Positions 37,254 through 43,206 are shown, counted from the first letter of the stretch. The stretch is DNA of 64,000 nucleotides from Chloroflexota bacterium (GCA_021787445.1 JAJYLV010000002.1:6340-70339), one strand, 5' to 3'. Numbers and translations: made by a program. Notes: a model not told the origin generated them from the letters alone.

Positions 37254-37324
37254 GTGCTTCGCACGGACATCCATGGCTCGTGCGTCAGCGCCAGCACGCT
37301 GCCGCTGGCTGCCCTGGCGCGGCT

Positions 37325-38194
37325 GTGAGCGTACGCATCGCCGTCGCGCAGTGCGCCCCGGCGCTCGGAGCATTCAAGAGGAACCTCGACCTGCATCTCG
37401 CCACGATCGAGCGGGCACGGGAGGCCGGCGCGCAGGTGGTCGTGTTCCCCGAGCTGTCCCTCACGGGCTACTACGTGAAGGATCTCGCGACCGACCTCGC
37501 GTGCGCGCCGGACGACGCCGCGCTCGCGCCGCTCGCCAAGGCGGCGAACGGCATCGACGTCGTCGCCGGCTTCGTCGAGCGCTCGCCCGACGCGCGGATC
37601 CACATCGCGAGCGGCTACTGGTCGGGCGGGGCGGTCCGCCACGTTCACCGCAAGGTGTACCCGCCGACGTACGGGATCTTCGACGATGCTCGCTACTTCG
37701 CGCGCGGCGAGCGGTTCGACGTGTTCCCCAGCGCGCTCGGACCGGCGGGGATCGCGATCTGTGAGGACGCGTGGCACATGTCCACTCCGTACCTCTACGC
37801 CGTGCGCGGCGCGCACGTCCTCCTCTACGTCGCCGCGAGCCCCGGACGCGGCGTCTCGGAGGGCGGCGACCTCGGCACCGCCGAGTCGTGCCGCCTCATG
37901 GACGCCTTCTACGCCCAGTACCTGACGATGTACGTCGTCTTCGTGAACCGCGTCGGGCACGAGGATGGGATCGCGTTCTGGGGCGGCTCCGAGGTCGTCG
38001 CGCCCGACGGCACCGTCGTCGCGCGCGCGAAGGAGTTCGAGGAGGATCTCCTCGTCGCCGAGATCGATCCTCTCCTCGCCGCTCGCGAGCGCGCGCGGAA
38101 CCCTCTCCTGCGCGACGAGCGGCACGACCTCGTGCTCCGCCACCTCGCCGAGCGGGTCGGGATGCCGCGCGGTCTCAAAGAGGTGCTGGACTGA
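37325..38194 (+). CDS. Nitrilase-family C-N hydrolase (probable glutaminase partner of NadE)
   Basis: Catalytic E-K-C in FPELS, HRKVY and ICEDAW; NRVG.EDG. Confidence 0.88.
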   Translation: MSVRIAVAQCAPALGAFKRNLDLHLATIERAREAGAQVVVFPELSLTGYYVKDLATDLACAPDDAALAPLAKAANGIDVVAGFVERSPDARIHIASGYWSGGAVRHVHRKVYPPTYGIFDDARYFARGERFDVFPSALGPAGIAICEDAWHMSTPYLYAVRGAHVLLYVAASPGRGVSEGGDLGTAESCRLMDAFYAQYLTMYVVFVNRVGHEDGIAFWGGSEVVAPDGTVVARAKEFEEDLLVAEIDPLLAARERARNPLLRDERHDLVLRHLAERVGMPRGLKEVLD

Positions 38195-39078
38195 CCGTTC
38201 ACCCGCGGCGCGAGCAGCGCGTCGGCGCGATCCGGCCCGACCCCGGCGACCTGTCGCCGCTCCGCATCGACGAGGCGCTCGTCCGGCGGATGCTCGTCGC
38301 GTTCCTCCGCGCCGAGACGGCGAAGGTCGGGCTGCGCCGGGCGGTGGTCGGGCTGTCCGGCGGCGTCGACAGCGCCGTCGCTCTCGCGCTCGCCGCCGAA
38401 GCGTTCGGCCCGGAGCGCGTGCTCGCGGTCCACACCCCCTACCGCACCAGCAGTCCGGCCTCGCTCGAGGACGCGCGCGCCGTCGCCGACCGCTGCGGCG
38501 TGGAGCTGCGCGTCATGCCGATCACCGCGCAGATCGACGCGTACCGCGAGCTGGTCGGCGAGGAGATGCAGCGCGTCCGTCTCGGGAACAAGATGGCGCG
38601 CGAGCGCAAGTCCATCGAGTTCGACCTCGCGTGGCCGGACGGCGCCGTCATCGGGACGAGCAACAAGACGGAGCTGCTCCTGGGATACGGCACCTGGTTC
38701 GGCGACATGGCCTCGTCGCTCAACCCCGTCGGCGACCTCTACAAGACGCAGCTGCGCGAGCTCGCGGTGCTGCTGGGGATCCCGGAGCGGGTCGTGAAGA
38801 AGCCGCCGACGGCGGAGCTGTGGCTCGGCCAGACCGACGAGGAGGAGCTCGGCTTCACGTACGCCCAGGCCGACCTGATCCTGTACTTCCTCGTCGATCG
38901 CCGCGCGCGGCCGGAGGAGCTGCTCGCCGCCGGCTTCGGCGCCGTGCTCGTCGGCCGCATCCGTGAGATGGTGCGGAAGAGCCACTTCAAGCGGGTGACC
39001 CCGCTCATCGCGAAGGTGAGCCTGCGCACGATCGGCCACGACTTCCTCTATCCCCGCGACTGGGAGGCCGATCGATGA
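38191..39078 (+). CDS. nadE: NAD+ synthetase
   Basis: GLSGGVDS, GNKMARER, GTSNKTE, GDLYKTQ and PTAELW.GQTDE motifs; start uncertain. Confidence 0.93.
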   Translation: MTVHPRREQRVGAIRPDPGDLSPLRIDEALVRRMLVAFLRAETAKVGLRRAVVGLSGGVDSAVALALAAEAFGPERVLAVHTPYRTSSPASLEDARAVADRCGVELRVMPITAQIDAYRELVGEEMQRVRLGNKMARERKSIEFDLAWPDGAVIGTSNKTELLLGYGTWFGDMASSLNPVGDLYKTQLRELAVLLGIPERVVKKPPTAELWLGQTDEEELGFTYAQADLILYFLVDRRARPEELLAAGFGAVLVGRIREMVRKSHFKRVTPLIAKVSLRTIGHDFLYPRDWEADR

Positions 39079-40099: not shown

Positions 40100-40154
40100 C
40101 GGCTACGCGAGCCAGCGGATCGCGCGCCGCACGGGCCCACTAGGATCGCGCCGC

Positions 40155-40835
40155 GTGGGGAAGCTGTATCTCGTCGCGACGCCCATCGGGAACCTCGAGG
40201 ACGTGTCGCCGCGGGCGCTGCGCATCCTCCAGGAGGCCCACATGGTCGCCTGCGAGGACACTCGCCACACTCAGATCCTCCTCCGGAAGCACGGCATCCG
40301 AGCGAAGCACCTGACCTCGTACAACGAGTTCAACCACCGCCGCAAGGTGGGCGAGCTGATCGGCCAGCTCGACCGCGCCTGGGACATCGCGCTCGTGTCC
40401 GACGCGGGGACCCCGGCGCTGTCCGATCCGGGCGAGGCCCTCGTCGCCGCGGCGATCGCCGCGGGTCACGAGGTCGTCCCCATCCCCGGCCCCTCGGCCT
40501 CCGTCGCGGCCCTCGTCGCGTCCGGGCTCCCGACCCGCGAGTTCACGTTCGTCGGCTTCGTCCCGAAGAAGAGCGGGCAGCGCCAGCGTCTGCTCCGCGA
40601 GCTCCTCGCCGCGCGGCGAACGATCGTCCTGTACGAGAGCCCGTACCGCGTCGCCGACCTGCTCGGAGACCTCGCGGCGGTGGACCCGGCGGCGCGCGTC
40701 GCCATCGCACGCGAGCTCACGAAGCTGCACGAGGAGATCGAGCGCGGTACGGCGTCCGACCTCGCCGCGCGGTACGCGGGGACGGCCGTGAAGGGCGAGA
40801 TCACGGTGGTGATCGCGCCCCCCGAGCGTCCCTAG
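40155..40835 (+). CDS. rsmI: 16S rRNA C1402 2'-O-methyltransferase
   Basis: LVATPIGNLED, CEDTR, SDAGTP..SDPG, YESP and RELTKLHEE motifs. Confidence 0.96.
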   Translation: MGKLYLVATPIGNLEDVSPRALRILQEAHMVACEDTRHTQILLRKHGIRAKHLTSYNEFNHRRKVGELIGQLDRAWDIALVSDAGTPALSDPGEALVAAAIAAGHEVVPIPGPSASVAALVASGLPTREFTFVGFVPKKSGQRQRLLRELLAARRTIVLYESPYRVADLLGDLAAVDPAARVAIARELTKLHEEIERGTASDLAARYAGTAVKGEITVVIAPPERP

Positions 40836-40844
40836 ACTGGACCG

Positions 40845-42398
40845 ATGCCCGACCGGAAGTTCTACGTCACGACGGCGATCGACTACGTCAACGACCGACC
40901 CGGGCTGCACCACGCCTACGAGAAGACGGGCGCGGACGCCCTCGCGCGCTTCCACCGCCAGCGCGGCGACCACGTCTTCTTCCTGACCGGCACCGACGAG
41001 AACGCGACGCGCAACGACCGTGCGGCGAAGGAGCTCGGGATCCCGACCCAGGAGCTCGTCGACCGCAATGCTTCCGAGTTCCGGCGGATGTGCGACGCGT
41101 TCCAGATCTCGTACGACCGCTTCATCCGGACGTCCGTGGATCCCGACCACCGCGCCGGGGTGCAGGAGCTCGTGCGGCGCTGGATCGAGAACGACGACGT
41201 CTATCTGGCGACGTACGAGGGCCTCTACTGCGTCGGCTGCGAGGCGTTCTACGAGGAGTCCGACCTCGTCGACGGGAAGTGCCCCATCCACCCGACCCGG
41301 CAGATCGAGCGCCTGCGGGAGGAGAACTTCTTCTTCCGGCTCAGCCGCTATACCGAGCCGCTGACGAAGCTCTATCGCGAGCGACCGGAGGCCTGCGTCC
41401 CGGCCATCCGGCGCAACGAGGTGCTCGGCTGGCTCGAGCGGGGGCTGCGCGACATCAGCGTCTCGCGGCGCGGACTCAGCTGGGGGATCCCGTTCCCCGA
41501 CCACCCGGATCACGTCGTGTACGTATGGTTCGACGCGCTCATCAACTACGTGACCGGCGTGGGGTTCGGGACGAACGAGAAGCTCTTCGCCGAGTGGTGG
41601 CCGGCCGACGTTCACATCATCGGCAAGGACATCACCCGATTCCACTGCATCTACTGGCCGGCGATGCTCATGGCCGCCGGCGTCGAGCTTCCGCGCCAGG
41701 TGTACGCGCACGGCTTCCTCGAGTACGCGGGCCAAGGCCGCCTCTCGCGCTCGAGCGGCAACATGATCGACCCCATCGCCGCCGCGAACGAGTGGGGGAG
41801 CGATGCCGCGCGCTACCTGCTGCTGCGCAGCGCGCCGTTCCAGAAGGACACCCCCATCTCGCCCGGGTCGTTCAACGCGCGCTTCGACGCCGACCTCGCG
41901 AACGGGCTCGGCAATCTCCTCTCGCGCACCGCGGCGATGGTCGAGCGCTACTTCGCCGGTCGCGTTCCCGAGGCCCGCGGCGGCGGCGCGTCGGAGGCCG
42001 CGGTGCGCGAGACCGCCGAGCGGAGCCTGCGCGATCACGACGCCGCGGCGGCGCAGCTGCATTTCTCCGAGGCGCTCGATGCCGTCTTCGCCTTGGTCGA
42101 CGCGGCGAACAAGCACTACACGGTCACGCAGCCGTGGATCCTCGCGCGGGATCCCGCGCGCCGCGACGACCTCGCCGCGGCCCTCTACGTCGGGTGCGAG
42201 TCGCTGCGGCTCATCGCGTACCTGCTCTGGCCGTACATGCCGCAGACGGCGGTCACGATCGCGGAGCAGCTCTCCGTCGCGTCCCCCGCGGACGCGGCGT
42301 GGAGCGACGTCGCGCGGTGGGGCCTGCTGAGCCCCGGGAGCGAAGTGCGTCAGCGCCCGCCGCTCTTCCCTCGGCTGGAGTCGAACAAGGTCGCGTGA
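40845..42398 (+). CDS. metG: Methionine--tRNA ligase (short form, altered signature motifs)
   Basis: FLTGTDE, CxxC knuckle, YVWFDAL, IGKDI.RFH and LFPR motifs; rsmI-metG-tatD synteny. Confidence 0.94.
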   Translation: MPDRKFYVTTAIDYVNDRPGLHHAYEKTGADALARFHRQRGDHVFFLTGTDENATRNDRAAKELGIPTQELVDRNASEFRRMCDAFQISYDRFIRTSVDPDHRAGVQELVRRWIENDDVYLATYEGLYCVGCEAFYEESDLVDGKCPIHPTRQIERLREENFFFRLSRYTEPLTKLYRERPEACVPAIRRNEVLGWLERGLRDISVSRRGLSWGIPFPDHPDHVVYVWFDALINYVTGVGFGTNEKLFAEWWPADVHIIGKDITRFHCIYWPAMLMAAGVELPRQVYAHGFLEYAGQGRLSRSSGNMIDPIAAANEWGSDAARYLLLRSAPFQKDTPISPGSFNARFDADLANGLGNLLSRTAAMVERYFAGRVPEARGGGASEAAVRETAERSLRDHDAAAAQLHFSEALDAVFALVDAANKHYTVTQPWILARDPARRDDLAAALYVGCESLRLIAYLLWPYMPQTAVTIAEQLSVASPADAAWSDVARWGLLSPGSEVRQRPPLFPRLESNKVA

Positions 42399-42444: not shown

Positions 42445-43206
42445 GTGATCGACGCGCACGCGCACCTCGCGGACGACCGCTTCGCCGCCGACCTCGACGA
42501 CGTGCTTGTCCACGCGCGTGACGCGGGCGTCGCGCGGATCCTCGCGTGCGGCGAGGACGTCGCCTCGAGCGAGAGGACGATCGAGATCGCGCGGCGCGAT
42601 CGGCTCGTCCGCGCCGCTGTCGGCATCCACCCCCACCGTGCCGCGACGTGCGACGCGGCGGCGCTCGCGCGCCTCCGCGAGCTCGCGCGCGACGAACGCG
42701 TCGTCGCGATCGGCGAGATCGGGCTGGACCTGTCGGGGCGCTCCGCGCCGCGCCCGTCGCAGGAGGCCGCGCTCGTCGCGCAGCTCGCGCTCGCCGCCGA
42801 GCTCGGGCTCCCTGTCTGCCTCCACGTACGTGACGCGGGGCCCGAGGTCCGCGCGGTCCTCGACGGCGTCACGCACGGCACGGGCTACATCCACTGCTAC
42901 AGCGAGACCGCGAACGAGGTGGACGGCTGGATCGAGCGTGGGTTCTTCGTGTCGTTCGCCGGCACGGTGACCTACCCCCGCGCCGACGTGCTGCGGGCCG
43001 CCGCCGCGGTAGTCCCCGACGAGCGCCTTCTCGTCGAGACCGACGCGCCGGCGCTCGCGCCTCAGCGCCGCCGCGGTCGGCGCAACGAGCCCGCGGCGAT
43101 CGGCGAGACGTACGAGACGGTCGCGCGGCTCCGGGGCCGCGACGTCCCGAGCGTCGCGGAGCTCGTCTCGCGCAATGCGGCGTCGCTCTTCGGGCCGTGC
43201 TGGTGA
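42445..43206 (+). CDS. tatD: TatD-family hydrolase
   Basis: DAHAH, GIHPH, GEIGLD, HCYS, ETDAP and NEPA motifs. Confidence 0.93.
   Translation: MIDAHAHLADDRFAADLDDVLVHARDAGVARILACGEDVASSERTIEIARRDRLVRAAVGIHPHRAATCDAAALARLRELARDERVVAIGEIGLDLSGRSAPRPSQEAALVAQLALAAELGLPVCLHVRDAGPEVRAVLDGVTHGTGYIHCYSETANEVDGWIERGFFVSFAGTVTYPRADVLRAAAAVVPDERLLVETDAPALAPQRRRGRRNEPAAIGETYETVARLRGRDVPSVAELVSRNAASLFGPCW

Follow-up and report, generated by a model that had tools for sequence, protein, structure and literature searches.

The metG locus and its genomic context

The window, the entire stretch of 64,000 nucleotides that was analysed, derives from a Limnocylindria-type Chloroflexota bacterium of soil and mine water. 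A methionyl-tRNA synthetase (MetRS) of the short bacterial type, 517 amino acids in length, is encoded on its plus strand by metG (40845-42398; TIGR00398, 435.7 bits against a cut-off of 336.35). Both Pfam domains PF09334 (tRNA-synt_1g; 313.1 bits) and PF19303 (anticodon domain; 29 bits against a cut-off of 23.5) are recognised in the protein, the latter over residues 374-514, corresponding to an anticodon-binding helical domain (41964-42386, plus strand) which includes the conserved P430-W431, while a C-terminal dimerisation domain is lacking. Directly 5' of metG lies rsmI (40140-40835, plus strand), coding for the 16S rRNA C1402 2'-O-methyltransferase (NCBIfam TIGR00096, 224 bits against a cut-off of 167.9), the start codon of which is uncertain and the stop codon of which is separated by 9 nt from the metG start. 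Directly 3' a tatD/ychF-family nuclease gene is located (42445-43206, plus strand; TIGR00010, 219 bits against a cut-off of 206). Further neighbours in the window code for a CN-hydrolase, an NAD synthase, an EamA-type exporter, a DUF4349 protein, an HD protein and a GNAT protein (NCBIfam/Pfam). Profile annotation of the neighbourhood revealed no biosynthetic cluster near metG, and neither a cupin nor any other partner domain in the MetRS, nor its fusion or linkage to a partner enzyme, was found (Pfam; neighbours rsmI, tatD and DUF4349).

An earlier note on this DNA had termed the rsmI-metG-tatD arrangement canonical. This gene order is present in the window, and the metG-tatD adjacency is retained in all 27 loci examined in the same class and likewise in other Chloroflexota. 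By contrast, the rsmI-metG link occurs in none of these 27 class loci; rsmI lies directly 5' of metG in the window and in nine of 17 loci from other Chloroflexota classes. Elsewhere in the window, a CN-hydrolase ORF (37280-38194) and an NAD-synthase ORF (37771-39078) overlap in different frames, and the pair (37280-39078) resembles a split or frameshifted glutamine-dependent NAD synthetase.

Permutation of the class I signature motifs

All class I aminoacyl-tRNA synthetases are defined by two signatures, of which the HIGH motif is one, and the first His and the Gly of this motif are regarded as nearly invariant. In the metG product this site reads G20-L21-H22-H23 (40902-40913, plus strand), the residues at positions 1 and 3 of HIGH having traded places, while the KMSKS loop reads R299-L-S-R302-S (aa 299-303; 41739-41753, plus strand), both lysines being changed to arginine. 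Both motifs are confirmed by translation and by alignment to solved MetRS structures, of which the bacterial enzymes 5xet, 6ax8 and 5xgq are the best matches (E 8.5e-129), followed by 2csx, 2x1l, 4dlp and 1a8h. The HMMER alignment against 5xet/6ax8 is gap-free through both motifs, placing P-H-V-G-H-A-Y-E over P-G-L-H-H-A-Y-E and K-M-S-K-S over R-L-S-R-S, so that GLHH represents a genuine exchange of positions 1 and 3 and not an alignment shift.

Two further segments of the protein are of a more ordinary kind. The sequence T-D-E-N (aa 50-53; 40992-41003, plus strand), the usual form of which is TDEH, had also been listed among the altered motifs; it is present, with D51 and E52 kept, and N53 is a common variant that occurs in 21 of 148 canonical relatives. 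A zinc-knuckle-like segment, C129-x2-C132 ... C146-P-x-H149, can be recognised from the sequence in the connective peptide (41229-41291, plus strand) and may bind zinc, with C129 and C146 belonging to the positions that are at least 90% conserved among the canonical relatives (n = 148).

Near-identical DNA is found in sequencing runs of several studies, and four runs were compared, covering three studies other than the likely source. Contigs of run X2 span metG at 40845-41245 and 41702-42034, those of X4 at 40845-41668 and 41640-42217, and those of X9 at 40845-41006 and 41434-41905. None of the contigs of these three runs shows a differing letter within 40902-40913, 40992-41003 or 41739-41753, and the sole indel near the motifs is a 3-nt deletion in X9 at 41731, immediately before the RLSRS codons. 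Although the source is a single MAG, the chance that faulty sequencing or assembly produced the altered motifs is negligible, because these codons recur in contigs from three other studies and the motifs in more than 100 independently assembled homologues, G-L-H-[HYF] being found in 113 of the 120 closest.

Conservation and housekeeping status of the MetRS

The assembly from which the window derives (G000) is a 2.51 Mb MAG of 185 contigs that is 95% complete. A profile search of this genome returned a single match to the window protein and a single TIGR00398 match over the cut-off, leaving no sign of a second metG in the 95% that is covered. Its other class I matches comprise LeuRS (H-I-G-H, KMSKS), ValRS (H-L-G-H, KMSKS) and CysRS (H-I-G-N), all three of which are canonical, as well as ArgRS, a second CysS/MshC-like protein and an IleRS whose sequence is divided between two contig ends. 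The gene for the CysS/MshC-like protein (C180:5607-7202, locus L048), which occurs besides the regular cysS, scores 347 bits with TIGR00435 and 329 bits with the MshC model, the latter below its cut-off. Among the 45 tRNA genes of the genome are those for both an initiator-like and an elongator tRNA-Met. Exactly one metG over the cut-off is likewise encoded in each of five genomes from the class that are closed or nearly so, and all five genes carry the swapped motif, in the form GLHT (G186 and G161, both single-contig), ALHS (the single-contig G101, and G036) or PLHS (G028).

Conservation was assessed against 148 canonical proteins, each representing one of the nearest clusters at 50% identity, with a position counted as conserved where at least 90% share one residue. 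The window MetRS is identical at 64 of the 68 positions so defined, including the anticodon-binding P430 and W431, and the four exceptions are exactly H20G, G22H, K299R and K302R. His at position 20 and Gly at position 22 occur in 146 of the 148 canonical relatives, with the remaining two being gapped there, while K299 is present in 142 and K302 in 146 of them, and none carries Arg at position 302. The observations of the earlier note that both class I signatures are altered and that the rest of the protein is intact are thus both borne out. The dN/dS ratios of the window metG against its orthologues range from 0.10 to 0.33 (seven pairs, NG86), and the gene is under purifying selection. No RNA run is listed with the gene, and the one RNA run that was compared yielded a single 39-base piece of 90-95% likeness. 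Since the gene is the sole metG found and is under purifying selection, its product would be expected to activate methionine and charge tRNA-Met, in agreement with the housekeeping role previously proposed for it. The TIGR00398 and PF09334+PF19303 scores and the conserved core and anticodon-binding residues are those of a MetRS, while the HIGH order and the KMSKS lysines depart from the canonical form; given its HIGH order, the protein is classed as a variant and not as an ordinary member of the methionine-tRNA ligases.

These features also bear on the possibility of a pseudo-synthetase, in which case the protein would be a MetRS-like paralogue that is inactive or has been repurposed, with methionine being charged by another enzyme. 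Both class I signatures are off consensus, and domains resembling MetRS can have a different chemistry, as described for hydrazine synthetases (bioRxiv 10.1101/2025.08.22.671884). However, no other metG was found in G000 or in the five closed or nearly closed class genomes, the core positions and the anticodon-binding P-W pair are kept under purifying selection, the position next to tatD is conserved and the protein is free of a cupin or other partner domain, making a pseudo-synthetase very improbable. The hydrazine-synthetase domains were also considered as a parallel for the motif itself and set aside as not relevant, the HLGH described there being canonical (bioRxiv 10.1101/2025.08.22.671884).

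Distribution of the permuted HIGH motif

Both altered motifs can be followed among orthologues. In the 120 closest proteins of the 90%-cluster database (at least 66% identity), the source names of which are Chloroflexota and Candidatus Limnocylindria, the HIGH position reads GLHH in 105, GLHY in seven, GLHF in one and HLGH in six, with one being incomplete, and the KMSKS position reads RLSRS in 63, RLSKS in 41, RLSKT in eight and other forms in eight. At the level of the class, 88 genomes of the same GTDB class having this MetRS type were sampled, with several per family and in a non-random manner; the sample leaves out three loci from unpublished genomes, and the motif counts exclude the unpublished genomes G012, G157, G114, G099, G107, G133, G098, G168, G209, G076, G261 and G357. 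The exchange of positions 1 and 3 is class-wide in the window's Chloroflexota class, occurring in 83 of the 88 sampled genomes as GLHH, GLHY/F, G-[LVI]-H-T or A/PLHS. Family f1 (38 genomes) comprises 31 genomes with GLHH, two with GLHY and five with HLGH, while both genomes of family f2 carry GLHF, all 21 of family f3 G-[LVI]-H-T, all 26 of family f4 [AP]-L-H-S, with A or P standing in for G at position 1, and the single genome of family f5 GLHT.

Outside the class, none of 39 genomes from 18 families of other Chloroflexota classes carries the swap, all 39 being H-x-G-x (one unpublished locus left out). Seven of the best 80 named species-representative loci are swapped, all of them labelled Chloroflexota, Chloroflexi or Limnocylindria, and the remaining 73, from many phyla and including at least two labelled Chloroflexota or Caldilineaceae, are H-x-G-x. 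Among the nearest 150 of 18,759 MetRS matches (E up to 0.001; 50%-cluster representatives), 146 are H-x-G-x, two are GLHT and two are incomplete. Position 4 of the motif varies in the canonical relatives (H, T, F, S, N or Y), and for every swapped form there is a canonical counterpart that differs by the exchange of positions 1 and 3 (GLHH/HLGH, GLHT/HLGT, GLHF/HLGF, GLHY/HIGY and [AP]LHS/HLGS). A separate variation of the second signature is seen in family f22 of another Chloroflexota class, where the MetRS of four genomes (L202, L207, L218 and L219 in G247, G331, G315 and G291, respectively) has H-V-G-H and a KMSKS position without lysine, E-L-S-Q-S or P-M-S-Q-T; no metG other than that of this lysine-less MetRS exceeds the cut-off in any of the four genomes, of which three are single-contig.

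Evolution, probable reversion and co-occurrence with the KMSKS change

A careful maximum-likelihood tree of 68 rows was calculated with the motif columns removed. Families f1 and f2 form a clade (support 100/100), within which a GLH[YF] clade (99/98) and a 44-row clade (97/94) are found, the latter containing a nine-row clade (99/99) made up of all seven HLGH rows and two GLHH rows. The starred branches of this tree require at least three state changes, and none of 200 bootstrap trees can be explained by a single one. Constraining all 49 swapped f1/f2 rows together, a group defined after a tree had been inspected, costs 47.7 lnL on the 68-row tree (p-AU 0.013), while the same constraint, with HLGH outside the swapped rows, is not rejected on a quick 93-row tree (p 0.76), for which the unconstrained search gave a poorer result than the constrained search. 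HLGH within family f1 reads as a reversion from the swapped state.

Families f3 and f4 form a single clade (99/98 in the 68-row tree). In the best tree a single branch sets all class rows apart, with a support of 22 in the 93-row and 87/44 in the 68-row tree, and the derived residues V110, W196, R92 and D101, common to the class and rare in canonical relatives, fit common descent. It is likely that the swap arose just once, at the base of the class, with weak support for the union of f3/f4 with f1/f2 against the canonical outgroups.

No alignment column of the kind that might mark a compensating residue, tracking the swap across the swapped clades and reverting in the HLGH rows, was found. At positions 62, 307 and 308 the GLHH rows differ from the revertants, and these positions were rejected as compensators, being inconsistent in f3/f4. 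Arg18, considered as a relocated positive charge before the motif, was likewise rejected, since it is often present in canonical relatives too and varies in f3/f4. Arginine at both lysine positions of KMSKS accompanies GxHH in all 84 rows with a readable HIGH site (one more such row is incomplete there). Among rows that are partly non-independent, R302 occurs in none of the 146 canonical, 50 f3-f5, 11 revertant and 12 GLH[YF] rows, and its state changes four times on the 93-row tree.

Within the genus of the window bacterium (g1), three metG alleles are found, namely GLHH (G000, G004 and G006), HLGH (G002, with 6% contamination) and GLHY (G005). The GLHH allele of G007 (L014) is nested, together with P0108, among HLGH alleles, and its first 50 amino acids are 90% identical to the window protein and 82% identical to its tree neighbour, a weak hint that this gene may be a mosaic.

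A different MetRS, of the archaeal/E. coli type and about 600 amino acids in length, is encoded in 18 of 92 family f1 genomes, including the two unpublished genomes G209 and G076. It occurs in 16 of 22 genomes of genus g5, one of 26 of g9, one of three of g6 and none of the seven of g1, among them G000. The nearest solved structure is 1rqg; the protein is NF001100-like, carries H-L-G-H with K-F-S-[TS]-S and shares 28-31% identity with the window MetRS over residues 126-477. The swapped MetRS was not found in the 11 archaeal-type genomes that are also in the class sample, while in G011 both types are present, the second in two pieces. The archaeal-type MetRS thus appears to replace the swapped enzyme in the 18 f1 genomes and, given these enzymes and the three alleles in g1, metG has evidently been exchanged or displaced within the family. 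An M28-like peptidase gene adjoins the archaeal-type metG in G010, G014 and G024 (L041, L043 and L044), and a similar peptidase gene lies 5' of the swapped metG in G006.

Proposed catalytic arrangement

With a probability of roughly 0.8, the window metG product is the sole working MetRS of this Limnocylindria-type bacterium and one of a lineage of MetRS, spread through the class, that have a permuted HIGH motif and in which His22 would take the place of the first His. In this lineage position 1 no longer holds histidine but G, A or P, and the His is found at position 3, normally an invariant Gly. In the proposed arrangement, the imidazole of His22 may reach the site normally occupied by that of the first His and there stabilise the transition state of methionyl-adenylate formation. 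In the GLHH subgroup, Arg299 and Arg302 of the mobile KMSKS loop could replace the two lysines in holding the ATP phosphates. Enzymatic activity and these roles of His22 and Arg299/Arg302 are predicted by analogy with the type 2 isoleucyl-tRNA synthetases (IleRS2).

Natural IleRS2 with G/AXHH are described as fully active, the ALHH enzyme having a kcat of 45.5 per s, and in IleRS2 crystal structures the His at the third position of GXHH places its N-epsilon where that of the first His of HXGH sits, with a shift of the helix tip making room for a His at the Gly position (PMC10485003). The same swap is not accommodated in IleRS1, where it abolishes activity (PMC10485003), and a Gly-to-Pro replacement at HIGH position 3 of the E. 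coli MetRS is reported in the same paper to cripple kcat. The inactivation of IleRS1 and the defect of the E. coli MetRS suggest that tolerance of the swap depends on the scaffold.

The swapped isoleucyl-tRNA synthetase and the origin of the exchange

The IleRS of G000, split over the contig ends C73:28772-30211 (L050) and C6:47492-49420 (L049), is of the IleRS2 type, with G-I-H-H at the HIGH and E-F-H-K-T at the KMSKS position. Among its relatives in the class (L241-L269), G-[IV]-H-[HS] is found in 27 of 27 loci, and the KMSKS position reads E-[FM]-H-K-[ST] or A/P-M-H-R-S in 22 of 22. With GxH[HS] in the IleRS and GLHH in the MetRS, two class I synthetases of the class carry a swapped signature.

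The exchange could be an adaptation protecting the MetRS from a natural inhibitor that binds its adenylate/ATP pocket, in the way that GXHH protects IleRS2 from mupirocin, the same swap raising the mupirocin Ki of IleRS2 up to 1000-fold (PMC10485003). Resistance of the MetRS to Met-adenylate mimics, raised as a possibility in the earlier note, is likewise a hypothesis. The swapped IleRS of the class would fit such a history, as would the patchwork of metG types in the family (swapped, reverted HLGH and archaeal-type), with three alleles in g1, a pattern which may be typical of synthetases under drug pressure. However, the trait is class-wide and old and not a recent acquisition, no pair of sensitive and resistant metG genes and no nearby biosynthetic cluster accompany it, and HLGH revertants persist. 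Natural-product MetRS inhibitors with self-resistance were not found in the literature searched, as judged by titles and abstract openings. An origin in inhibitor resistance is therefore regarded as unlikely, and the same low likelihood attaches to the broader proposal that the swap is a general, reversible class Ia solution that became fixed here because it renders the MetRS adenylate pocket refractory to a natural inhibitor. If this were true, intrinsic insensitivity to MetRS inhibitors that target the ATP site or mimic the adenylate would extend to an entire class of soil bacteria, and the swap in both IleRS and MetRS would suggest that aminoacyl-adenylate mimics exerted a shared pressure. 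As the origin of the swap, historical contingency with compensation is no less likely than inhibitor selection.

Comparison with known systems

If the predicted activity holds, the occurrence of this exchange in a second and independent family of synthetases would provide a natural series for studying transition-state stabilisation by HIGH. This series includes a swap fixed class-wide as the sole MetRS, single-His forms (GLHT, PLHS), natural HLGH revertants and a Lys-to-Arg change in KMSKS (R302) that is seen only on a GxHH background. It is also a matter for annotation, as motif-based filters, such as PROSITE-type class I patterns, would presumably flag these essential MetRS as defective, and it is of relevance to MetRS as a drug target.

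The GXHH motif of IleRS2 has been described as a natural exchange tied to antibiotic hyper-resistance and peculiar to that enzyme (Brkic et al. 2023, PMC10485003). No description of the HIGH position 1/3 swap in a MetRS was found among the matches listed from the open-access literature, judged in part by title and abstract, supplements lying outside this scope, of which the phylogenetic one of PMC10485003 could mention other synthetases, and a search of the same literature for aminoacyl-tRNA synthetases of Limnocylindria returned nothing. Within the open-access literature searched, the swap has so far been described only in IleRS2 and the MetRS case is new, in line with the earlier note, which named no MetRS example.

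The solved short bacterial MetRS (5xet/6ax8/5xgq, 2csx, 2x1l, 4dlp and 1a8h) share full-length, gap-free homology and the same domain order with the window protein. They all differ from it in their HIGH motif, where position 1 is His and position 3 is Gly, and in reading K-x-S-K-S; the corresponding sequences of the window protein are G-L-H-H and R-L-S-R-S. The archaeal/E. coli-type MetRS (1rqg) has the same function, but is about 600 amino acids long, has the canonical H-L-G-H and is absent from G000. The closest parallel to the motif itself is found in the G/AXHH enzymes of IleRS2, such as the ALHH form of D. radiodurans (PMC10485003). The analogy drawn with them in the earlier note holds at the sequence level, as G20, H22 and H23 conform to the permuted G/AXHH pattern of a small residue at position 1 and His at positions 3 and 4. 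In both families positions 1 and 3 are exchanged, the IleRS2 enzyme is a working cellular synthetase, as the window MetRS would also be on the sequence evidence, and the trait is clade-wide with reversion, in Deinococcus-Thermus for IleRS2 and in the HLGH subclade for the MetRS of the window's class (PMC10485003). They differ in that the window enzyme is a MetRS known here from its sequence, with no inhibitor known to be involved, that families f3-f5 have also lost the fourth His (GLHT, A/PLHS) and are left with a single His, and that the KMSKS lysines have been replaced by arginine in the MetRS subgroup to which the window protein belongs.
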